Source: Bacteroidales bacterium (GTDB taxonomy: Bacteria; Bacteroidota; Bacteroidia; Bacteroidales; F082). From it: 64,000 bases of DNA. The position numbers were made by a program, and so were the translations under genes. Location: positions 1,996-65,995 of the forward strand of contig JALNZT010000006.1 of NCBI GenBank assembly GCA_023229135.1. Direction: 5' to 3'. Shown here piece by piece: positions 2,473-37,416 of the stretch. The notes below the pieces were generated by a model. The model made no database searches. It was not told where the DNA came from and saw only the letters and a program-made list of their open reading frames with translations. Every line of letters begins with the position of its first letter. The first letter of the stretch is position 1.

Positions 2473-3687
2473 ATGCTGAAAGGTAAAAAAATTCTTATCG
2501 GAATTACTGGAAGCATTGCAGCTTATAAAATTCCGCTGCTGGTACGCTTGCTGGTGAAACAACAAGCTGAGGTGCAAATTGTTATGACGCCTTCAGCCCA
2601 TGATTTCGTTACGGCACTCACCTTATCAACGCTTAGCAAACGTCCCGTTTTATCCAAAGCTTTTGACCCCGAAACCGGCCAATGGGACAGCCATGTGGAG
2701 CTGGGATTGTGGGCCGATTTGATGCTTATTGCTCCAGCTTCTGCCAATACCTTGGCGAAAATGACACAGGGTTTGGCGGATAATTATTTGCTTACCGTTT
2801 ATTTGTCAGCACGTTGTCCTGTATTTTTTGCACCGGCCATGGATCTCGATATGTATAAACATCCGGCAACACAGCAAAATGTAAAATCCCTTGTGCAACG
2901 CGGTTACCAGCTTATTGCACCTTCTTCGGGAGAGTTGGCAAGCGGCTTGTGCGGCGAAGGCAGGATGGAAGAGCCGGAACAGATTTTTGAAAGAATCAGA
3001 TCGTATTTTGCTAAAGGACAGCGGTTTAAAGATAAAAAGGTGTTGGTTAGTGCCGGTCCTACTTACGAAGCCATCGATCCGGTGCGTTTTGTAGGCAATT
3101 ATAGCAGTGGCCGCATGGGCGTTGAGATTGCCAAAGCTTTTGCTGCCCAAGGTGCTTCCGTTACCTTGGTTTTAGGTCCGGTAAGTATCGTGCTCGATTT
3201 GTCAGGGGAAATTGATGTGATTCCCGTTACTACAGCACAAGAAATGTTTGATGGCTGCATGGCGTTTTTCGCACAGGCGGATATTGCTGTTATGACCGCT
3301 GCCGTTGCGGATTACAGGCCTGAAGAAGTGTCAGAAACAAAAATTAAAAAGCAGGCAGACGACCTCACTATAAAACTGGTTAAGAACAAAGATATTTTAG
3401 CTACAATGGGTAGTCAAAAGCGTGAGGATCAGTTTTTAGTTGGTTTTGCGCTGGAGACAGACAATGAAATTGAAAACGCGAAAAAGAAACTACATACCAA
3501 AAAGCTGGATTTGATCGTTCTTAACTCACTGTCGGATGCCGGAGCAGGTTTCGGTCATCATACCAATAAGGTTAGCTTTATTGATAAATCAGGTGAAACA
3601 AAGCCTTACAGCTTGAAATCAAAAACTGAAGTAGCTGAGGATTTGACGGATACTGTTTTTGCGAAAACTAAGAATGTAAATAATTGA
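2473..3687 (+). CDS. coaBC: bifunctional phosphopantothenoylcysteine decarboxylase / phosphopantothenate-cysteine ligase
   Basis: 404-aa ORF with the N-terminal flavoprotein motif KKILIGITGSIAAYK and a C-terminal ligase half (VSAGPTYEAIDPVRFVGNYSSGRMG). Confidence 0.92.
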   Translation: MLKGKKILIGITGSIAAYKIPLLVRLLVKQQAEVQIVMTPSAHDFVTALTLSTLSKRPVLSKAFDPETGQWDSHVELGLWADLMLIAPASANTLAKMTQGLADNYLLTVYLSARCPVFFAPAMDLDMYKHPATQQNVKSLVQRGYQLIAPSSGELASGLCGEGRMEEPEQIFERIRSYFAKGQRFKDKKVLVSAGPTYEAIDPVRFVGNYSSGRMGVEIAKAFAAQGASVTLVLGPVSIVLDLSGEIDVIPVTTAQEMFDGCMAFFAQADIAVMTAAVADYRPEEVSETKIKKQADDLTIKLVKNKDILATMGSQKREDQFLVGFALETDNEIENAKKKLHTKKLDLIVLNSLSDAGAGFGHHTNKVSFIDKSGETKPYSLKSKTEVAEDLTDTVFAKTKNVNN

Positions 3688-3716
3688 GATTAAGCGCCAC
3701 TAAGCTAAAACTATTT

Positions 3717-4622
3717 ATGTCGAAAAAAGTATTATTGTTTATTTTCAGTTTATTGCTGCTTTTGCCTGCAGCTAAATCTCAGGAATTTTTGGCAGACATC
3801 CGCGTAACCACGCCAACTATTGAAGGGACAGACAAACGTGTTTTCGAGGCTTTGCAATCGGCTTTATATGATTTTGTGAATAACCGGAAATGGACCAATA
3901 TCAATTTTAAAAATCAGGAACGCATTGAGTGTTCTATATTGATAACCATTAAGGAACGCGTTTCGTCTGATGAGTTTAAAGGCACAATAAATTTGGTGCT
4001 GAGGCGTCCGGCTTTTAAATCATCCTACAATAGTGTGTTGCTAAACTATATTGACGAGAATTTCCAGTTTCGCTATATTGAGTCGCAACCGCTTGATTTT
4101 ATTGAGAATACCTATAGCTCAAGCCTTACCTCAACGGTAGCTTTTTACCTTTATTATTTTTTAGGACTAGATTTTGATAGCTATTCGCTTTACGGTGGCG
4201 ATCCCTTTTACCGGGTAGCCGAAGCCATTGTTAACTCAGCACAAAACGCCCAGGAAAGAGGCTGGAAAGCCTTTGACGGAAACAGAAATCGCTATTGGCT
4301 GGTAGAAAATATGACCAATCCCGCTTATCGTCCTCTCCGTCAATTTTCTTATGAATATCACCGACTTGGTTTAGATATCATGTCAGAAAAACCTGACGAA
4401 GGCCGCGCTGCCATTGGCCAAAGTCTCACTTACTTGCAGCAAACCTGGAAAGATCGGCCAAACCTGCTGACTCTACAACTGATTTTTGATGCTAAACGTG
4501 ACGAAATCATCAATGTTTTCTCTCAGGGAAGCCCGCAGGAAAAAACCAAAGCGGTAAATATCATGCGTGAAGTTGACCCGTCTAATGCTTCTAAGTATGA
4601 GAAGATTTTGGCACCGAATTGA
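3717..4622 (+). CDS. DUF4835-like secreted protein; its 3' end is the insertion hotspot
   Basis: The track ORF starts at TTG 3684, overlapping the coaBC stop. ATG 3717 gives the signal peptide MSKKVLLFIFSLLLLLPAAKSQ. The family name is recalled from the conserved coaBC-DUF4835-recN neighbourhood and has not been verified by search. Confidence 0.65.
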   Translation: MSKKVLLFIFSLLLLLPAAKSQEFLADIRVTTPTIEGTDKRVFEALQSALYDFVNNRKWTNINFKNQERIECSILITIKERVSSDEFKGTINLVLRRPAFKSSYNSVLLNYIDENFQFRYIESQPLDFIENTYSSSLTSTVAFYLYYFLGLDFDSYSLYGGDPFYRVAEAIVNSAQNAQERGWKAFDGNRNRYWLVENMTNPAYRPLRQFSYEYHRLGLDIMSEKPDEGRAAIGQSLTYLQQTWKDRPNLLTLQLIFDAKRDEIINVFSQGSPQEKTKAVNIMREVDPSNASKYEKILAPN

Positions 4623-6647: not shown

Positions 6648-7028
6648 CTATTTGAAATTAATGCGATCACCAAGTATAAACTCAGGCGCGTGGCTTTCAT
6701 TGAGGTTCGTAAGGTCTATTTCACTCACTTGTAATAATTTAGCCATGGTTTCATTGCCATCAGCATCGTAAAACGTGACTGAAACGAAAGGAGGTTCATT
6801 ACCATCACTATTCGTAATGTAATCCCATATCTCTTGCCAGGAAACAGAAATAGAAGCACATTTATTAAATGCAAAGCCAGGGCATATTTTAATGTTGCCA
6901 TTATTGATTTCAGCGCCTGCCTTGCCGTAAATAGGAACTTCTACACCGTAAGAATAATTCGTTGCAAATGCGAATAAGCATATCAAGAGATATTTTGTCA
7001 TTGTTGATGAGACGAATTTTTTCATCAT
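6648..7028 (-). CDS. small secreted Cys-containing protein, paralogue of 7025-7357
   Basis: 126-aa ORF with a signal-like N-terminus (LLICLFAFATNYSYG). It shares YGK[GA]G..IKICP..C[AS] motifs with its neighbour. Its start overlaps the upstream stop (ATGATGA). Confidence 0.7.
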   Translation of the reverse strand: MMKKFVSSTMTKYLLICLFAFATNYSYGVEVPIYGKAGAEINNGNIKICPGFAFNKCASISVSWQEIWDYITNSDGNEPPFVSVTFYDADGNETMAKLLQVSEIDLTNLNESHAPEFILGDRINFK

Positions 7029-7357
7029 TCAATTAGTTTAATTTTAATAGATTCACCTTGAACACCACCTTCAGGACTTATTTCAGGCAGCATAAAGACT
7101 CCAATATCATCTTTGCTAATCACAATGATGTTGCCATCAACTCCATTTATTTTTAAGTCATCGATGTCAATTGTTAAGGTCGCGCATAGCGCAGAACTAG
7201 CTTCAGGGCAAATTTTAATAGTAGTGCCTCCACTGCCATGGTCTCCAGACACACCGCCCTTTCCATATACCTTTAGTTCCGCAGCTTCGGTTGATTGAGT
7301 AAAAAGAAATGCTAAAGCTGTAAATGCTATAACAGTTAAACTTTTAAACGTTTTCAT
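7025..7357 (-). CDS. small secreted Cys-containing protein, paralogue of 6648-7028
   Basis: The track ORF 7025-7429 has an implausible N-terminal extension into the leader hairpin. The internal ATG at 7357 gives MKTFKSLTVIAFTALAFLFTQSTEA followed by AELKVYGKGG..IKICPEASSALCA. Confidence 0.7.
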   Translation of the reverse strand: MKTFKSLTVIAFTALAFLFTQSTEAAELKVYGKGGVSGDHGSGGTTIKICPEASSALCATLTIDIDDLKINGVDGNIIVISKDDIGVFMLPEISPEGGVQGESIKIKLIE

Positions 7358-7448
7358 TTTTTTTAAGTTTAGTGGTTTGTAAATATGGTAAGTAACGAAG
7401 AACGCCATCTCAATAAAATATAACATCATTGAGACGGCCCACCTCGGC

Positions 7449-7999
7449 CGAACTTATTCTTCCCCAGCCAAAAGATGTATTTAGTTGTGCAATATGGCAC
7501 AAATTGTCTATCAAATAAAAGTGTGTAGTAAAGCTCATGACAACAAGCTACATCAAAGGATACTAACCGGGCTAAACCACCATGCCTTGCTTTTGCGGGG
7601 GGGGGTAAAGCCATATTGTTCAGGATACCAGAGCGAACTTATCAGCTGCCTACGCTTTAAAGCACACAACTTAAAGATTGCGGTTAGAAAAGACCTAAAA
7701 AAACGGATAGTTTTCATAAGCTGGTTTTGAGGCTTCAAGTATAAGTACAATAAACATAAAGCACAACTTTTTTTTTGCGATTTTGCAATAAAAAAAACAA
7801 ATATTTTTTATGTTACTGAAATTCAATTGAATAAAACTGTTTTTTAAGCTTGATAAATTCTAAAAGGTGGCTGAGAGAGCTTATATTAACTAAATGCGCT
7901 GGAAAAAATGGGAGCAAAACTCAAGCTCTATAACTGATTATCAATGCCAATAGAGACGGATTTAGGGAGGCACGGATTGCAAATCCGCGCCAGCGGGTG
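7449..7999 (-). repeat. promoter/leader module copy A (heads cassette A)
   Basis: It aligns by eye along its whole length with 17736-18270, 24793-25358 and 26807-27299. It contains a G9 run at 7597-7605. Confidence 0.9.
7736..7766 (-). promoter_or_regulatory. Bacteroidota-type promoter in module A (TTG-20 nt-TATACTTG)
   Basis: The minus strand reads agTTGtgctttatgtttattgtactTATACTTGaagcc. This is one mismatch from the TAnnTTTG -7 consensus, and copies D and E match it perfectly. Confidence 0.45.
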
Positions 8000-8065
8000 A
8001 ATATTATGCGTGAGGTTGATCCGGCTAATGCTTCTAAGTATGAGAAGATTTTGGTGCCGAGGTAA
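8000..8065 (+). pseudogene. displaced 3'-end fragment of the DUF4835 gene
   Basis: aatattatgcgtgaggttgatccggctaatgcttctaagtatgagaagattttggtgccgaggtaa is colinear with 4557-4622. It encodes NIMREVDPANASKYEKILVPR* versus NIMREVDPSNASKYEKILAPN* in the gene. Confidence 0.85.
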
Positions 8066-17649: not shown

Positions 17650-17735
17650 ACTTTGAATTGTTAGACTGTAAATAATTGTGAGTAGTTAAAAGTGAATTGT
17701 GAAGCCGTCCTTAAAAGAAAGACGGCACAATTCAA

Positions 17736-18270
17736 TCGAACTTATTCTTCCCCAACCAGAAAATATATTTTGTCGTGCAACAAGGCACAAATTGTTTATC
17801 AAATAAAAGTGCGTGGGATAATTCATGACAACAGTCTGCATTAAAGCTATCTAGCCGGGCTATACCACCATACCTTACTTTTGCGGGGGGGGGGTAGGAT
17901 AGCAGAGCAAGCTAATCAGCTGCGTACGCTTTAAAGCACACGGCTTGAGGATTGCGTTTAGAAAAGACCTAAAAAAACGGATAGTTTTCATAAGCTGGTT
18001 TTGAGGCTTCAAGTATAAGTACAATAAACATAAAGCGCAACTTTTTTTTGCGATTTTGCAATAAAAAAAACAAATATTTTTTATGTTACTGAAATTCAAT
18101 TGAATAAAACTGTTTTTTAAGCTTGATAAATTCTAAAAGGTGGCTGAGAGAGCTTATATTAACTAAATGCGCTGGAAAAAATGGGAGCAAAACTTATGCT
18201 TTACAACTGAACATCAATGGCAAAAGAGACGGATTTAGGGGGGCACGGATTGCAAATCCGCGCCAGCGGG
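17736..18270 (-). repeat. promoter/leader module copy B (heads the complete rSAM operon)
   Basis: It aligns with copies A, D and E. It has a G10 run at 17885-17894, and its upstream end abuts a truncated gene at 18270/18271. Confidence 0.9.
18010..18040 (-). promoter_or_regulatory. Bacteroidota-type promoter in module B (TTG-20 nt-TATACTTG)
   Basis: Same sequence context as module A, about 355 nt upstream of the precursor ATG at 17649. Confidence 0.45.
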
Positions 18271-21722: not shown

Positions 21723-21926
21723 TTATGTTGGATTAGCTATTGACTTCATTGTTGAGTGATTAGTTGCACTTGTGGTTGTTGACCTATTCATATTATATGT
21801 TGTATCTTCACCACTACAACTACATGTACAGCTACAAGCTGGGGTTGTACCACCTCCGCCTTCTTCACCACCTTTGATTTGACTTAATGCATTCTGAGAC
21901 AAATTGATTAATTTTAAGTTTTTCAT
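21723..21926 (-). CDS. RiPP precursor peptide with a double-glycine leader and CxCxCxC core (divergent tail)
   Basis: MKNLKLINLSQNALSQIKGG | EEGGGGTTPACSCTCSCSGEDTTYNMNRSTTTSATNHSTMKSIANPT. Confidence 0.8.
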   Translation of the reverse strand: MKNLKLINLSQNALSQIKGGEEGGGGTTPACSCTCSCSGEDTTYNMNRSTTTSATNHSTMKSIANPT

Positions 21927-22007
21927 CGTTTGAAAAGTTTAATTGGAAATAATAATAACTAGAAAATGAGGGTACGCCGTCAATTAATTAATGACGGCAA
22001 TCATCGA

Positions 22008-22090
22008 TCGAACTTATTCTTCCCCAGCCAAAAGATATATTTTGTTGTGCAACACCGCACAAACTGTTTGCGAAATAAAAGGGTGTGAGC
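22008..22090 (-). repeat. partial promoter/leader module copy C (only the precursor-proximal ~80 nt conserved)
   Basis: tcgaacttattcttccccagccaaaagatatattttgttgtgcaaca..aaataaaag matches the low-coordinate end of copies A, B, D and E. The sequence from 22090 to about 22345 is unique and contains a G6 run at 22159-22164. Confidence 0.75.
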
Positions 22091-22440
22091 CTGATCGTGC
22101 ATGCAAGCAACAAGCTGCCGGATGATGCCTGTAAGACTCTTCCACTCGGTATTTATTAGGGGGGTTAATGGCTTGTATATCATAATTATATAAAGATTTG
22201 GTCATACAAACAACCAAGCATGCAAACAATTTGTTTGGGGCAGATAAACTTGGTGGGTAGGTGCTGGCTGATCTCATGGCTTTGTTTTCGGCTTTAAAAC
22301 TAAAAACAACATTTTTAGAAAGCAAATATTTTTTTGCATGATGTTTCTTTTCTTAATGGAGCAAATTTCTTAATCCGGCTGTTTATAGGGCATTGCAATG
22401 CTATTTAAAATGGATATAAATTGAGAAGTAATGTTTTCAG

Positions 22441-24792: not shown

Positions 24793-25358
24793 TCGAACTT
24801 ATTCTTCCCCAACCAATCCCGAAAGCTTTCGGGAATATTTCGTCGTGCAATAAGGCACAAATTGTCTATCAAATAAAAGTATGTAGTAAAGCTCATGACA
24901 ACAAGCTCCATTAAAGGCGGCTAACCGGGCTAAACCACCATAGTCTTGCTTTTGCGGGGGGGGGGGTAAAGCCATGTTGTTCATGATAACACAACAAGCT
25001 TATCAAACGTGTACACTTTATAGTACACAACTTAAAGATTGCGGTTAGAAAAGACCTAAAAAAACGGATAGTTTTCATAAGCTGGTTTTGAGGCTTCAAA
25101 TATAAGTACAATAAACATAAAGCGCAACTTTTTTTTACGATTTTGCAATAAAAAAACAAATATTTTTTATATTACTGAAAATCAACTGAATAAAACTGTT
25201 TTTTAAGCTTGATAAATTGCCAAATGCGGCTGAGAGAGCTTAGATTAACTAAATATGCTGGAAAAAATGGGAGCAAAACTTATGCTTTACAACTGATTAT
25301 CAATGGCAAAAGAGAAGGATTTAGGGGGGCACGGATTGCAAATCCGCGCCAGCGGGTG
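24793..25358 (-). repeat. promoter/leader module copy D (heads the ATP-grasp cassette)
   Basis: It aligns with copies A, B and E and has a G11 run at 24956-24966. It carries an extra small hairpin insertion cccgaaagctttcggg at 24818-24833. Confidence 0.9.
25097..25127 (-). promoter_or_regulatory. Bacteroidota-type promoter in module D (TTG-20 nt-TATATTTG, perfect TAnnTTTG)
   Basis: The minus strand reads gTTGcgctttatgtttattgtactTATATTTGaagcc. Confidence 0.5.
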
Positions 25359-26381: not shown

Positions 26382-26441
26382 TTTTAAATTAATTTTAAGT
26401 GCTTAAATGTTATCACTTATGGAAAAAGCACATTCATAATG

Positions 26442-26655
26442 TCAAGAATATCCCAGAACGTCTTCATCTGTATTATAGCCACAACCATCTGATAAACAGC
26501 CGTCATCAATTAGATTAGCTGTGATAGTTTTTCTATTATTTTTGTAAATACCCAGCCTGAAATCATAGTCTAAGTATATCCCTCATTCTCAGTATTTAAT
26601 TCTGAATGGTTTAAATTGTCTATTTTTACTTTCTTAATATCTAATTTTTTTTCAT
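26442..26655 (-). pseudogene. possible decayed leader-peptide gene interrupted at an A8 tract
   Basis: ATG + A8 + TTAG gives MKKN*. With one extra A it would read MKKKLDIKKVKIDNLNHSELNTENEGYT. A third frame continues as GIYLDYDFRLGIYKNNRKTITANLIDDGCLSDGCGYNTDEDVLGYS*. It occupies the position of the first small ORF after leader module E. Confidence 0.3.
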
Positions 26656-26806
26656 GCTATTTATTGTTAAATTATTAAATTCTATAACGGGTTCATTATG
26701 ACTGATTTATGCGTAAAAAACGATTTTGACAATGAGAACCCAAAACCTTATAATATAAAAACATGTTTCGCCGCTACTTTATTCTATATAGTTGCGGCTA
26801 ACTCGA

Positions 26807-27299
26807 TCGAACTTATTCTTCCCCAACCAGAAAATATATTTTGTCGTGCAATAGGACACAAATTGTCTATTGTATAAAAGTGTACAGTAAAGCTCATGAC
26901 AACAATCAGCATTAAAGGCCGCTAAGTGGGCTAAACCACCACACCTTACTTTTTCGGGGGGGGGGGGTAGGATAGCAGAGCGAGCTAATCAGCTGCGTAT
27001 GCTTTAAAGCGCACAGCTTGAAGATTGCGGTTAGAAAAGACCTAAAAAAACGGATGGTTTTCATAAGTTGGTTTTGAGGCTTCAAATATAAGTACAATAA
27101 ACATAAAGCGCAACATTTTTTTTTACGATTTTGCAATAAAAAACAAATATTTTTTATGTTACTGAAAATCAACTGAATAAAACTGTTGTTTAAGCTTGAT
27201 AAATTCTAAAAGGTGGCTGAGAGAGCTTAGATTAACTAAATATGCTGGAAAAAATGGGAGCAAAACTCCAGGTTTACAACTAATTCTCTATTTCAAAAA
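26807..27299 (-). repeat. promoter/leader module copy E (heads the lipoprotein cassette)
   Basis: It aligns with copies A, B and D and has a G11 run at 26956-26966. Its upstream end joins a DUF4835-gene fragment at 27300 instead of the hairpin end of the other copies. Confidence 0.9.
27083..27113 (-). promoter_or_regulatory. Bacteroidota-type promoter in module E (TTG-20 nt-TATATTTG)
   Basis: Same context as module D. Confidence 0.5.
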
Positions 27300-27440
27300 A
27301 GACGAAATCATTTATATTTTCTCACAAGGAAGCCCGCAGGAAAAAACCAAAGTGGATAATGAGGCTCGCCAGTCAGGGCGCAACAAATTGGATTCGCCTC
27401 AGAGTCGCACCCTTACTCTTCACCCTGACTCTTAAAAAGC
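27300..27440. repeat. direct repeat 1 flanking the FtsX permease gene (begins with a copy of DUF4835 nt 4500-4559)
   Basis: gacgaaatcatttatattttctcacaaggaagcccgcaggaaaaaaccaaagtggataat is colinear with 4500-4559. It then continues gaggctcgccagtcagggcgcaac..., which is shared with 30162-30285. Confidence 0.85.
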
Positions 27441-29876: not shown

Positions 29877-30161
29877 TTTGAAAAGGTATTTAGTATTCTA
29901 TTATACAAATTGAACTTTTCCGATACCATTATGGGGCAAGATGAATTTTTAACTCGAAGCTGGTACTGTAATATAATGATTGGCTGTTTCATAGCATGTT
30001 AATTAAAGTACGATATTACAAAATTATCTTTTCAAAAGCAAGCAACGAATTAGGTTCGTATTTTAAAAAATAGAGGAATATTATGTAAAAGGCTCAATAA
30101 ATTGCTATTGCTCCTTGTTTAAGATGTGTTTAATTGACTTTCAAGGGTAGGCGACGAAATC

Positions 30162-30285
30162 ATTTATATTTTCTCACAAACAAGCCCGTAGAAAAAAACC
30201 AAAGTGGTGAATGAGGCTCGCCAGTCAGGCCGCAACTAATCCGGAAACGATAAAATTCGCACCCTGACTTCAAAGCAATAAATAT
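30162..30285. repeat. direct repeat 2 flanking the FtsX permease gene
   Basis: gacgaaatcatttatattttctcacaaacaagcccgtagaaaaaaaccaaagtggtgaatgaggctcgccagtcaggccgcaac... is colinear with 27300-27440 apart from a ~24-nt internal deletion. Confidence 0.85.
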
Positions 30286-33526: not shown

Positions 33527-36500
33527 ATGAAATCAAAGGCTTTTTTGCTGCTTTTTTTACTGCAACTCCTTTTGCAGCCCCTGTTAGCGCAAGATATTAC
33601 TAAAGACAGCCTGCCTCCACGGTGGGAAATATCCGCTGATTACTTTGCACGGTTTACCAAATTTTCTCCTGTCAATTTTCGCGAAATCGGAACTGTAAAT
33701 GATATTGTCCAGGATCGTACCGGCTTTATTTGGCTGGCCGGCGAAAATGGTCTTGGCCGTTTTGATGGCTATGAGTTTAAGATTTATCAGGCTGCTGAAA
33801 GTGAAAACAGCCTTAACGGCAGCCTGATTAGCAGCCTGTTAGTAGATCCAAAGGGTGATTTGTGGCTTGGCCATTCGGGTGGATTATCACGCTACAATAA
33901 GACTGCTGATAATTTTGTAAACCTTTTTGGTGCTTATACGCCTTTCGGGACTTATGCTGACAGCAACTACGTGCGCGCCCTGCTAATGGATGGCGACAGC
34001 TTGATTTGGTTTGAAACTGTCGATGGCTGGTTGCATTCGTATAACTTTGTAAATGAGAGTTATAAAAAGCACGCCAAGCATAGCGCGATCGATCAGCATT
34101 ATTACTTTTATCATGCCTTAGCCCGAAGTATGGATGGCGAATTATACGTAGGCGGCAGGGGAGTAGGGCCTTATGTCTACGATGAGAAATCCGGGAAATT
34201 TGAGATTTTGCCTGTTGATAAAAATGACCTACCTGGTTTTAAGCGTGAGTCTGATGTATCCTTAATTCTGCCTTTTAAGAAAGCGCAAACCTGGATTGGC
34301 AGCCTGGAAGGCCTCTATCTATTCGATAGAAAACGTAATTATTTTGAAATGTATTTTCAAGGTACGGTCTATGATTTTATTTGCGACAGAAATGGCCATC
34401 ATTGGCTGGGAACAGCTAATGGTGCTTTAAAAATAGATATAAAAACCGGTCTGGCTACTCATTATCAGCTTGACAATAATGATCCGGGATCGCTTGGTGG
34501 AGAACGAATTTTTGTTGTGTATGAGGACCGGAGCGGACGCCTGTGGATGGCACATGAAAATGGGGTTTCAACCCATCTTCCTCAGCAAGTTGGATTGAGT
34601 TATATGTTTCATGTTCCCGGTATTGAAAACACGCCGGCTTCTTCACGCATTACCAGCCTGGCCAAGAAATCTGATGATGAAATCTGGATTGGCACTGCCG
34701 ATGAAGGACTTGATTTGATGATGCTGCAAAATATGCAGTTTCAGCATTTTCATCCTGATAATCATTCAGGAGTTTTATCAAAACAGATTAGAAAACTTGT
34801 AAATCATCCTGATGGTACGCTGTACATCGCCTATTGGGCCGGAAAAGGCTTTGGACGCTATTTCAGTGAAAAAAGACTGTTTCAAAACTTTAGATTTGAT
34901 ACTGTAGGATTGACGCAGGACTGGTATAACGATTTTGCTTTTGATAAGGAGGGCGATGTTTATCTTGGTTTTTGGGGTGGCCCGGGACTAACACTTTTTA
35001 GTCATAAAAAGGGCAAATTTGATAAAGTGCTTGCCGGTAAACTTCCTGATGCGTATAATGCCAGGCTGATTACCAGTTTGATTAGCGCCGACAATCAGCT
35101 TTGGATTAGCACCTCTAACTCAGGTTTGATTCGCTACGATAGCGAGAAGGATACAGCAGTTTCGTACTACGCAGAAATTAACCCTAATGGGGGCATTGAT
35201 ACCGATTTAGTGTATGATGTTGCCGCAGATTGCGATAGAAATATTTGGGCAGCTGCTCAGGGACTATACCTATATGATCGCAAACTTGATCGATTTGTAA
35301 AAGTGTCCGGAGGCGTACGTTTTAATCAACTGCAAACCTATAGAATCAGTGCTGACAACCAAAATAACTTATGGTTGCTAACTTCTAAAGGACTGATGAA
35401 ATATGACGCAAAAAACGGGATTACAACGGATTACAGTATGCTTGTGGATATTAGTTTCAATTCAAACCAAGCCGCTATTTTACAACTCGATAGCACAAAA
35501 ATACTCATCGGTGGAGCCAATGGAATGGCCTTGATTGAAACTGATAAACTTGGTTTTAAGCACCGTTTTCCAAAGGTTTTTTTAACGCATCTCGATGTTT
35601 TTAATGAAGTTTATATTCCGTTTATACACAATTGTGAAGTCGTTAAGCTGGCATATAATCAAAACTTTTTCACCATAAATTTTGGTACAGACTGCTGGGA
35701 ATCATCTAACCTTTATACCTATTACTACAAACTGGAAGGCTTTGATGACCGCTGGCATAGTTTAACGTCTGAACAGCGTTCTGTTTACTTCACCAATGTT
35801 CCGGCGGGCAGCTACCTGTTTAAAATGCGTACCGGCGATGCTTATGGCAACAGAGGCGAGCAGGAGGCCAGCCTGAAAATTGAAGTTGTTGGTCCCTGGT
35901 GGAAGCAGTGGTGGTTTATCACTTTTGTAGCCATGTTCGTAATTTCTATTGTCCTCATGCTCTGGATCGTACGCCTACGCGATGTGAAAATGAAGTTGCT
36001 AAATATAGAGCTGAATCAAAAACTACTTCGTCTGCAAATGAATCCGCATTTTATTTTTAACTCACTCACCTCTATTCAGAGTTATATTTATTCCAATCAA
36101 AAACACCTCGCCGGACAGTATCTCTCCGATTTCGCTCGTTTAATCAGGCTGATTTTAGAAAATAGCCGCCATGAACGCATAAATCTCGAAAAAGAAATTG
36201 AGACGATCAGTTTGTATATGGAACTCCAACAATTGCGCTTTACGAATAGGTTCAGTTTCGAGGTTATCGTGGATACTGCCATTGACAAAGAAATAACTTT
36301 CGTTCCTCCCATGATGGTGCAGCCGTTTTTGGAAAACGCCTTGGAGCATGGCCTTAAAAATAAAACCGATGGCATCGGTAGAATTCAGGTGAAGTATTCG
36401 CTGCTTAAAAACAGTCTGCAATATGAAGTAAGAGATAATGGCGTTGGGCTTGCTATGGCAGCTCAGCAGAGCAAGTTGCACAAAGGCGAATCCCTTTCCA

Positions 36501-36658
36501 TAGCGATATGTAAGGAAAGGTTACAACTGATAGAAAAACAATCAAATATAAAGATTAATTTTATTATTGAGGAAATTATAGAAAACGGTAGTGTGAAAGG
36601 TACACGTGTAGTGTTTAGCGTTCCGCTAACTGGAAAATTCACAGGACAAACCAATTGA
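33527..36658 (+). CDS. sensor histidine kinase with a large periplasmic beta-propeller-repeat/Y_Y_Y-type domain and a LytS-type kinase core
   Basis: 1043-aa ORF with a signal peptide and repeated W..T..GL..YD propeller-like units. One TM (WWFITFVAMFVISIVLMLWIV) is followed by LRLQMNPHFIFNSLTSIQ (LytS/YehU-type His box) and an HATPase N-box (FLENALEHG). Confidence 0.8.
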   Translation: MKSKAFLLLFLLQLLLQPLLAQDITKDSLPPRWEISADYFARFTKFSPVNFREIGTVNDIVQDRTGFIWLAGENGLGRFDGYEFKIYQAAESENSLNGSLISSLLVDPKGDLWLGHSGGLSRYNKTADNFVNLFGAYTPFGTYADSNYVRALLMDGDSLIWFETVDGWLHSYNFVNESYKKHAKHSAIDQHYYFYHALARSMDGELYVGGRGVGPYVYDEKSGKFEILPVDKNDLPGFKRESDVSLILPFKKAQTWIGSLEGLYLFDRKRNYFEMYFQGTVYDFICDRNGHHWLGTANGALKIDIKTGLATHYQLDNNDPGSLGGERIFVVYEDRSGRLWMAHENGVSTHLPQQVGLSYMFHVPGIENTPASSRITSLAKKSDDEIWIGTADEGLDLMMLQNMQFQHFHPDNHSGVLSKQIRKLVNHPDGTLYIAYWAGKGFGRYFSEKRLFQNFRFDTVGLTQDWYNDFAFDKEGDVYLGFWGGPGLTLFSHKKGKFDKVLAGKLPDAYNARLITSLISADNQLWISTSNSGLIRYDSEKDTAVSYYAEINPNGGIDTDLVYDVAADCDRNIWAAAQGLYLYDRKLDRFVKVSGGVRFNQLQTYRISADNQNNLWLLTSKGLMKYDAKNGITTDYSMLVDISFNSNQAAILQLDSTKILIGGANGMALIETDKLGFKHRFPKVFLTHLDVFNEVYIPFIHNCEVVKLAYNQNFFTINFGTDCWESSNLYTYYYKLEGFDDRWHSLTSEQRSVYFTNVPAGSYLFKMRTGDAYGNRGEQEASLKIEVVGPWWKQWWFITFVAMFVISIVLMLWIVRLRDVKMKLLNIELNQKLLRLQMNPHFIFNSLTSIQSYIYSNQKHLAGQYLSDFARLIRLILENSRHERINLEKEIETISLYMELQQLRFTNRFSFEVIVDTAIDKEITFVPPMMVQPFLENALEHGLKNKTDGIGRIQVKYSLLKNSLQYEVRDNGVGLAMAAQQSKLHKGESLSIAICKERLQLIEKQSNIKINFIIEEIIENGSVKGTRVVFSVPLTGKFTGQTN

Positions 36659-36660
36659 TT

Positions 36661-37416
36661 ATGAGACCAAAAGCATTGATAGTGGACGATGAGGAAAGCG
36701 CCAGAAAAGCGCTTGCGAATATGCTGGAATATTATTGCAAAGAAATAGAAGTAGTAGCAACCGCAGCTAATATTTCCGAAGCTTATGACCAGATCAAAAC
36801 ATTAAATCCGGCAGTGGTTTTTTTAGACATTCAAATGCCCGGCGGCAATGGGTTTGATTTATTGAAAAAATACCGCCAAATACCTTTTAAAGTAATTTTC
36901 GTTACGGCCTACGACCAGTTTGCGCTCAGAGCCCTCAAGTTAAGTGCTATTGATTACCTGCTTAAACCACTAAGTCCGCGCGAGTTGATAAAAGCTGTAG
37001 AAAAACTTGGGCAGCAGTTAGAGGTAGAAGAGCGTTTTGATCAGCAGCTTAACGCTTTGGAAGACAATATGAAGACCGAAAGACGGCAAAAGAAAATTAT
37101 TCTTAATACTTCCGGTAATATGTATGTGCTTCGAGTAGACGATATTATCAGATGCGAAGCCGACGAAAACTATACGCGTATTATCGACCTTAAAGGTAAA
37201 GCAATTTTGGTCGCAAAAACCCTTAAAGAATTTGATGAATTGCTTTCGCCCCTTGGCTTTTGCCGGATTCACCAATCGCATCTGATAAACCTCGATCATG
37301 TACTCAGTTATGAAAAAGGTACAGGAGGCATGATTGTGCTATCAAACAAAGAGCGGCTTCCTGTATCGGGCAGGCGAAAGGATTTTTTCCTGAACAGCCT
37401 GCGTAACCATTTGTAG
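36661..37416 (+). CDS. LytTR-family response regulator
   Basis: Receiver domain (ALIVDDEESARKAL..VFLDIQMPGGNGFDL..KP) plus a C-terminal LytTR-like domain (IIRCEADENYTRI..FCRIHQSHLINL). I prefer ATG 36661 over the TTG at 36655. Confidence 0.88.
   Translation: MRPKALIVDDEESARKALANMLEYYCKEIEVVATAANISEAYDQIKTLNPAVVFLDIQMPGGNGFDLLKKYRQIPFKVIFVTAYDQFALRALKLSAIDYLLKPLSPRELIKAVEKLGQQLEVEERFDQQLNALEDNMKTERRQKKIILNTSGNMYVLRVDDIIRCEADENYTRIIDLKGKAILVAKTLKEFDELLSPLGFCRIHQSHLINLDHVLSYEKGTGGMIVLSNKERLPVSGRRKDFFLNSLRNHL

Follow-up and report, generated by a model that had tools for sequence, protein, structure and literature searches.

Homopolymeric tracts in a repeated element

A 64,000-nucleotide (nt) stretch of a Bacteroidales genome (GTDB family F082; GenBank assembly GCA_023229135.1, contig JALNZT010000006.1, positions 1,996 to 65,995 of the forward strand), referred to below as the window, contains four long runs of G on its plus strand. 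The runs lie in copies of a repeated element, named L1 to L5, whose sense strand is the minus strand, so that the G tracts of the plus strand are C tracts in sense. Downstream of each copy are genes for small peptides that are secreted or modified, and the tract lies inside a conserved small open reading frame (ORF). The four tracts are the only G/C runs exceeding 6 nt in the window. A run of nine G has an expectation of 0.09 when the window is shuffled by dinucleotides, and the observed number of such runs was reached in 0 of 100 shuffles. In the window alignment the four tracts form a single column of a repeat of ~600 nt, in keeping with an earlier note on this sequence, which had placed them at the same position of a shared leader. 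L5 is a fifth, partial copy of the repeat (21915-22330). The tracts of the five copies are as follows.

7597-7605, minus strand: C9 tract of L1; the N-terminal ORF reads it as Thr-Pro-Pro, the short ORF as Pro-Pro-Pro
17885-17894, minus strand: C10 tract of L2; the N-terminal ORF and the conserved C-terminal frame are not joined, and one more C would join them
24956-24966, minus strand: C11 tract of L3, with a further 1-nt insertion 3' of the tract
26956-26967, minus strand: C12 tract of L4; the two coding parts would join with one C less
22159-22164, minus strand: C6 tract of L5 (subfamily B); the N-terminal ORF passes into another frame and stops at the TAA of the core

Logan contigs of the landfill metagenome run X1, the probable source run, which contains 92% of sampled window words, provide a check of these lengths. 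G9, G10 and G11 are reproduced exactly, at depths of 52-63 and without an alternative length; segments 26400-26773 and 26876-27011 have no X1 contig, which leaves the G12 copy outside the check. Of the lengths 9, 10, 11 and 11 given in the earlier note, the first three hold, and the fourth is a G12 ending at 26967 instead of a G11 ending at 26966.

A predicted Bacteroidetes-type promoter, P1, precedes the tract in L1:

7736-7766, minus strand: promoter P1 of L1, with −33 element TTG at 7766-7764, a 20-nt spacer and −7 element TATACTTG at 7743-7736

The −7 consensus is written TATAYTTG, and a match to P1 is present in all subfamilies of the element. The distance from the −7 element to the tract measures 131 nt in L1, within the 130-140 nt estimated previously. 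Across copies the tract lies 45-135 nt downstream of the −33/−7 match, at a distance that differs between copies and outside the spacer in which promoter-spacer phase variation of the Bordetella fim or Neisseria porA type operates. Inspection by eye of both strands flanking the tract gave no convincing −33/−7 pair. A second promoter before the core, a promoter of the extracytoplasmic-function (ECF) or sigma-54 type and LytTR direct repeats were likewise rejected by eye, their consensus spacing being unmet.

Related copies of the element

Relatives of the element were found by scanning one genome per species and the metagenomes of the Joint Genome Institute (JGI) for the exact 18-mer TGGGGAAGAATAAGTTCG, the core of the element. 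The scan returned ~60 true copies, nearly all from metagenome-assembled genomes (MAGs) and metagenomes of Bacteroidales, Lentimicrobiaceae or unclassified Bacteroidetes, with a few in MAGs labelled as other phyla. Where the source sample could be identified, it was a metagenome from landfill, sludge or wastewater.

A C run of 5-19 is present in 47 copies, ending 126-146 nt before the 18-mer (128-187 nt counted from the start of the run), with a mode of 9-10 C. The longest tract belongs to the relative L091, where C23 (3026-3048) is in frame and encodes seven prolines. Long uninterrupted tracts persist at this one site in subfamilies that differ from each other by more than 40% in their flanks. 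Since the C run stands at a set distance in 47 copies, the tract is characteristic of the element and conserved in it, and is not a chance feature of the window genome. The exceptions retain the site in altered form: L012 and L025 carry interrupted CU-rich runs, the run is lost in L087 and L078/L090, and in L069 it is replaced by (CA)10, which is out of frame by one repeat unit.

A predicted small gene spans the tract

The conserved small ORF, encoded on the minus strand and 55-130 amino acids (aa) long, spans the tract in the copies compared. It consists of an ATG, a variable N-terminal part of 6-37 aa, the C-tract, read as Thr or Leu followed by 1-7 Pro, some 45 conserved residues and the end motif CTTKYIFWLGKNKF(D), after which a hairpin follows. 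The main ATG is located ~12-15 nt after the predicted transcription start site (TSS), and every conserved ATG opens an ORF into the tract. The ATG-to-tract distance is 97-113 nt in subfamilies A and B and 20-32 nt in subfamily C. The tract had been assigned earlier to a leader, 170-310 nt before the first start codon; the ATG 97-113 nt upstream of it, opening an ORF through the tract, contradicts this assignment. On the 3' side of the tract one frame is open as far as the 18-mer, reading ...LLF(D/R)(R/K)QFVP(Y/C)CTTKYIFWLGKNKF(D), and the core itself holds a TAA stop in a second frame.

7449-7466, minus strand: 18-nt core TGGGGAAGAATAAGTTCG of L1, invariant in the five window copies and coding for (W)LGKNKF
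17737-17754, minus strand: core of L2
22009-22026, minus strand: core of L5
24794-24811, minus strand: core of L3
26808-26825, minus strand: core of L4

Both sides of the tract carry a coding signature. On the C-terminal side, the 33 codons preceding the 18-mer (18-mer excluded) are free of stops in 51 of 55 unique copies, against 15 and 20 of 55 in the other two frames, and the ratio of non-synonymous to synonymous substitution rates (dN/dS) is 0.28, against 1.60 and 0.79. The antisense frames across this part are closed. Column entropy places the variation at third codon positions (TGC ACN ACN AAR TAY ATY TTY) and in CTG/TTG exchanges. On the N-terminal side, the frame of the conserved ATG is open in 25 of 26 copies, against 0 of 26 in each of the other frames, with dN/dS of 0.42 against 0.96 and 0.71. 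The distribution of variation over codon positions, together with dN/dS on both sides, explains the sequence conservation of the leader by its codons. An unrecognised embedded ORF had been among the guesses of the earlier note, and it is borne out by the two segments under purifying selection that the tract joins; the notion of a mere hypermutable spacer finds no support in them.

Gene callers seldom predict the small protein. A word-indexed protein search returned 11 matches, and an exhaustive profile search of 1.84 billion representative proteins returned 66 clusters, all of 38-133 aa. In each of the 66 clusters the profile match ends at the C-terminus or at most ~45 residues from it, and TPP, PPP or a similar proline motif stands ~35-65 residues before the end motif in most of the 31 matches read. 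The end motif was not found in the literature searched. Judged from its sequence, the tract region is a previously unannotated small coding region and not an untranslated leader.

A C-terminal DRGG was considered as a double-glycine (GG) cleavage site and rejected: many copies end in KNKFD, with Asp at position −4. In L031 (~525-1100), the in-frame small ORF reads through the hairpin into the downstream GG-leader peptide, forming a fusion of 192 aa that is probably due to chance.

In the 61 copies that were scanned, the distance from the core to the start of the hairpin is 1-29 nt (median 7), and the median free energy of the hairpin is −16.4 kcal/mol; a second, coarser scan gave a median of −13.0, compared with −5.9 in shuffled sequences (p=2e-7). 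Its sequence varies among copies and is usually not followed by a U run. In most copies the stop codon of the conserved frame lies 5-41 nt past the core.

7396-7446, minus strand: hairpin after the L1 small ORF, with stem GCCGUCUCAAU/AUUGAGAUGGC and the stop codon of the ORF in its 5' arm
17693-17734, minus strand: hairpin of L2
21965-22005, minus strand: hairpin of L5
24743-24792, minus strand: hairpin of L3
26770-26798, minus strand: hairpin of L4

Tract length and reading frame

No conserved start codon was found 3' of the tract in the copies compared, and the conserved C-terminal part is therefore translatable only through the tract. Tract length modulo 3 distinguishes three outcomes: a full-length ORF with a stop at or in the hairpin, a stop at the TAA of the core, or a stop 4-63 nt past the tract. 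Forty unique copies have an uninterrupted tract: 14 of them have the full-length ORF in frame, 8 run to the TAA of the core, 16 stop early and 2 end otherwise. When the tract is interrupted or lost, 8 of 10 copies are in frame (Fisher p=0.014). The nearly constant in-frame state of these non-slippery alleles shows that the frame of the DNA matters. Anything between one and seven prolines occurs in the in-frame alleles, and proline number is therefore not the conserved feature.

Among the window copies, only L1 has an in-frame start, and only from a second ATG. The two coding parts of each copy are situated as follows.

7553-7717, minus strand: N-terminal ORF of L1 (MKTIRFFRSFLTAIFKLCALK...TPP), opened by the ATG at 7717; with C9 it exits the conserved frame and stops at 7553
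17875-17991, minus strand: N-terminal ORF of L2
24911-25078, minus strand: N-terminal ORF of L3
26912-27064, minus strand: N-terminal ORF of L4
22014-22277, minus strand: N-terminal ORF of L5
7426-7614, minus strand: conserved-frame ORF of L1 (62 aa, MALPPPAKARHGGLARLVSFDVACCHELYYTLLFDRQFVPYCTTKYIFWLGKNKFGRGGPSQ), opened by the second ATG 9 nt before the tract
17732-17911, minus strand: conserved-frame segment of L2
26779-26988, minus strand: conserved-frame segment of L4
22001-22201, minus strand: conserved-frame segment of L5
24708-24920, minus strand: conserved-frame segment of L3, disrupted
24818-24833: hairpin-forming, frame-shifting insertion of 13 nt in L3 (CCCGAAAGCTTTCGGG), just before the core, which destroys the KYIFWLGKNKF end

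A 12-nt in-frame insertion is present in L025 (~290-305) at the site of the L3 insertion, suggesting a recurrent small palindromic insert.

Length variation in nature

The most direct view of length change is offered by the related locus L079, which is present in many public runs; contigs from 16 of these were compared across the tract. A contig of 363 nt is identical in all 16 runs except for tract length. The tract is C9, in frame and encoding 103 aa, in 14 runs that represent six or more distinct studies or sites. In runs X42 (depth 79) and X44 it is C10, which is out of frame and leads to a stop in the 18-mer. The MAG L015 likewise has C10 on 380 bases identical to L079. Another pair has flanks that are 98.9% identical: L007 carries C10 and is out of frame, and L045 carries C15 and is in frame. 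Since lengths differ on near-identical flanks in both L079 and L007/L045, the tract changes much faster than its surroundings. With lengths of 5-23 across ~47 copies and C9/C10 on identical flanks, these data support the suggestion of a tract that is prone to slippage and that does change in length. In run X5, contigs with G11 and G10 meet at an L3-like tract, which is only suggestive of mixed lengths.

Probable phase variation of the small protein

Taking up the anatomy of the small ORF, the coding constraint on both of its parts, the three frame outcomes and the natural polymorphism on identical flanks, we hold with moderate confidence that the slipped-strand tract is a heritable on/off switch of the full-length small protein, acting independently at each cassette. 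Gain or loss of one C at replication would move the N-terminal part among three frames. The first would yield the full-length protein ending at the hairpin, the second would lead to the TAA within the core, and the third to a stop a few codons past the tract. The result would be a reversible translational phase variation, set separately for each copy, with length changes that we infer to be frequent and reversible within a clone.

Several observations weigh against this reading. The in-frame share of 14/40 equals the one third expected for random phase, so that the copies as a whole give no indication of a preference for the on state. Read from the main ATG, each of the five window copies is out of frame, and each covered tract shows a single length in the assembled contigs of X1. 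Copy counts are not independent, because the copies were found by an exact 18-mer and are mutually related. No relatives of the small protein were found in Pfam, NCBIfam or PDB, and its AlphaFold model, a helix of low confidence (pLDDT 53), is uninformative. Promoter P1 and the TSS are consensus matches only, and contigs of RNA runs, which may contain DNA, reach ~120 nt upstream of P1.

The chief competing explanation is recoding. RNA polymerase or the ribosome might slip on the C run and produce full-length protein from a tract of any length, making the tract a rheostat or sensor instead of a switch. Runs of C are prone to frameshifting, and PPP motifs depend on elongation factor P (EF-P); tRNA-Pro might re-pair perfectly on CCC-C while poly-Pro stalls the ribosome, so that the amount of product would be tuned or made dependent on EF-P or the state of the tRNA. 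Such a mechanism would suit the purifying selection on the C-terminal part in all lineages, even though two thirds of copies are out of frame and have no internal start, and the random in-frame share keeps it alive. Against it stand the prevalence of the in-frame length at L079 (14/16 runs) and the alleles locked in frame through interrupted, non-slippery tracts. In addition, the (CA)10 at the tract site of L069 fits slippage of DNA better than slippage of tRNA-Pro, and the contigs of RNA runs show C9 only, though contigs drop minority variants. We regard recoding as unlikely.

The tract might also have no function, being a neutral hypermutable linker in decaying gene copies or a product of errors in sequencing or assembling homopolymers; Illumina assemblies are error-prone at long G/C runs. 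The out-of-frame state of the window copies, the further indels of L3 and the few copies with decayed tracts and stops (L078/L090, L049) point in this direction. The explanation nevertheless fits poorly and appears very unlikely. Uninterrupted tracts are retained across divergent subfamilies, whereas neutral homopolymers decay, and both coding halves are open and constrained. Errors are countered by the recovery of G9, G10 and G11 in X1 at depth above 50, by C9 and C10 at L079 each standing on whole contigs at depths up to 79, and by lengths of 5-23, far beyond errors of ±1.

A role of the tract in RNA structure, which had also been suggested, was examined by folding. No conserved structure involving the tract was found with RNAalifold or in pairing predictions. 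The sole consensus helix of 40 copies comprises four invariant pairs between CCCC of the tract and GGGG of the core, and no covariation supports a conserved RNA structure, contrary to what is expected of a structured cis-regulatory RNA. Partition-function calculations leave the tract largely single-stranded, with about 4 of 9 C paired on average, and its predicted partner differs by copy: a local GGUGG, the core GGGG, a post-core segment or none. No Rfam family matches the leader at gathering or permissive thresholds, and two leaders folded singly had only weak z-scores, near −2. As an RNA element in a non-coding leader, whether a loading (rut) site of Rho, a protein-binding site or a helix strand pairing with the core, with a length that would be under loose constraint only, the tract is highly improbable and fits poorly: its single-strandedness, the CCCC/GGGG helix and the CU-rich variants at its site would suit such a role, but the helix shows no covariation and no consistent partner, (CA)10 is unable to pair with GGGG, many copies disrupt an alternative TTGTGC/GCACAA hairpin with no compensating change, Rfam offers no match, and conservation is accounted for by codons.

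Two elaborations of such structures were rejected. An extension of the CCCC/GGGG helix by GCAAAAG/CUUUUGGC occurs in some copies of subfamily A and has no covariation in others. TTGTGC-N6-GCACAA, considered as an RNA hairpin or a CRP-like operator, varies in its left arm without compensation, and the codons of QFVPxC explain its sequence. As for features of rut sites, the tract is an isolated island of C amid G-containing coding sequence; it could serve as an entry point for Rho when translation stops early.

A possible leader peptide

The phase-variable small protein might act in cis. There is one copy per operon, the last 15-20 residues are the most conserved, and the hairpin abuts the stop codon; on these grounds we infer that the frame state may gate the downstream genes for secreted peptides and for RiPPs (peptides that are made by the ribosome and modified after translation), with the ORF as a leader peptide. 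For example, only a ribosome reaching the end of the ORF would open the hairpin or prevent polarity. That the small ORF serves as a phase-variable leader peptide acting in cis, in which only in-frame translation reaches the KYIFWLGKNKF end and the adjoining hairpin and so licenses the downstream operon, is a tentative proposal that we consider possible and still doubtful. If it holds, a single clone, with a dozen or more of these cassettes in its genome and a separate tract in each, would continuously yield cells with differing combinations of RiPPs, bacteriocins and secreted proteins, a stochastic and heritable bet-hedging of the peptide arsenal in anaerobic Bacteroidales.

At L079 (C9), contigs of two metatranscriptome runs cover the ORF together with the hairpin and over 3 kb of downstream sequence; they may contain DNA, and weakly suggest co-transcription of the small ORF with the downstream genes. 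In one of the two runs the region of L079 upstream of 2234 is absent. The RNA-run contigs at L079 begin near an element that occupies the place of a palindrome in the window. This palindrome, CGGATTTGCAATCCG, is located at 7973-7987, ~230 nt upstream of the promoter, and recurs in L2 and L3; it might be the operator of a regulator common to the copies. In subfamily B its place is taken by GCATTGCAATGC, at about 2246-2257 in L079.

Comparison with known systems

Contingency loci with a repeat in the 5' part of an ORF include the poly-G/C tracts of the pilC/opc type in Neisseria, the poly-G tracts of Campylobacter jejuni and the CAAT repeats of Haemophilus influenzae lic1, which has start codons in two frames. 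The general biology of simple-sequence repeats has been described (PMC3315296, PMC5084427). As in these loci, an uninterrupted G/C run of ~8-12 stands near the 5' end of a coding sequence, its length modulo 3 sets the frame, in-frame and out-of-frame alleles are mixed, and length differs on identical flanks. Three properties by which contingency loci are recognised were compared. Repeat length, about 7 or more for G/C, is C9-C12 for the long tracts of the window and 5-23 across copies; the repeat is placed where length changes would alter expression, between two segments with a coding signature; and length is polymorphic on identical sequence at L079. The likeness to lic1 extends to subfamily A, where two ATGs in different frames lie 112 and 9 nt before the tract. 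Unlike contingency loci, the element belongs to environmental anaerobic Bacteroidales and not to a host-adapted pathogen, its ORF of 55-130 aa has no known family and is not a surface or modification gene, and it occurs in many copies per genome, each heading a peptide or RiPP operon.

Repeats in 5' regions that modulate expression are known from Moraxella catarrhalis (poly-G of uspA1, AGAT of uspA2) and from the poly-G tracts of Treponema pallidum tpr genes. They share with the present element a homopolymer of strain-variable length between the promoter and the main structural genes. Those repeats are non-coding and act at the level of transcription or mRNA, whereas the tract described here lies in an ORF and appears to act on the frame.

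Regulatory leader and arrest peptides such as ermCL, TnaC, SecM, MifM and VemP resemble the small ORF in being short and directly upstream of the regulated genes, in having the C-terminal 15-20 residues most conserved, in abutting a hairpin with their end and in being present once per operon. The element differs from them in that its hairpin mostly lacks a U tract and its sequence is unrelated to any known one. We know of no leader peptide with a phase-variable repeat, and a hypermutable repeat inside a regulatory upstream ORF is, to our knowledge, a mechanism without a description. The GG-samocin radical-SAM systems of Bacteroidetes (TIGR04148/TIGR04150, NCBIfam) match the operons downstream of L2 and L5, which encode Cys-rich peptides with a GG leader, a TIGR04148 maturase, a TIGR04150 pseudo-radical-SAM protein and a C39 ABC exporter; this likeness concerns the cargo and not the tract, and the family descriptions known to us mention neither an upstream small ORF nor a homopolymer.

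Phase variation by simple repeats is textbook knowledge for a few host-adapted pathogens; in Bacteroidales, DNA inversions are the main form of phase variation known. No simple-sequence-repeat switch of this kind in Bacteroidetes was found in the literature searched. New are the small-protein family missed by annotation, its phylum and habitat, the many copies heading peptide operons, and a hypermutable tract that many species retain at one site of this gene, with a CA repeat in its place in one copy. For annotation, the regions of the small ORF are now called intergenic, and frameshifts at the tract resemble assembly errors. If the frame gates the operons, production of antimicrobial peptides in landfill, sludge and digester communities would be a stochastic, heritable and combinatorial trait, and genome mining would have to read the tract to predict cluster expression.

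Downstream genes and genomic context

In most copies the next gene begins ~80-130 nt past the 18-mer and encodes a GG-leader peptide, a small Cys-rich protein with a signal peptide or a lipoprotein. The cargo genes comprise GG-leader Cys-rich peptides, the radical-SAM maturase TIGR04148, the pseudo-radical-SAM protein TIGR04150, an ATP-grasp enzyme and a C39 ABC exporter. The following first genes were identified in the window.

7025-7357, minus strand: secreted protein of 110 aa, first gene after L1
17452-17649: GG-leader peptide of 65 aa after L2, with maturase genes
21723-21926: GG peptide of 67 aa after L5
24474-24683: peptide of 69 aa after L3, with an ATP-grasp gene

In L091, the downstream GG-peptide gene has a 1-nt deletion relative to L079.

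Segments of the leader (for example 17966-18002, 25046-25079 and 27046-27079) reach a depth of ~755 in X1 against ~58 in the flanks. Given this 10-13-fold excess, a dozen or more cassettes of this type are present in the X1 community and probably in the genome. Pieces of a DUF4835 gene's 3' end lie beside leader copies (7996-8060, 27301-27388 and 30153-30240), the intact gene being located at 3684-4622, and whole cassettes were therefore duplicated along with neighbouring DNA. Identity among L1-L4 forms a mosaic. Upstream of the promoter L1 is similar to L2; between the promoter and the tract it is similar to L3, and L2 to L4. This pattern indicates recombination or gene conversion between copies.

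A sensor kinase with Reg_prop, Y_Y_Y and His_kinase domains and a LytTR response regulator are encoded at 33527-37416, 6 kb from L4. Regulators of the LytTR type control bacteriocin loci in Firmicutes; no direct repeats matching LytTR sites were found in the leaders. The gene after L4 begins at 26645-26655 (minus strand) with ATG, A8 and TTAG, a four-codon ORF that A9 would open into one of 31 aa; the A8 run may be a second homopolymer frameshift, or an error.

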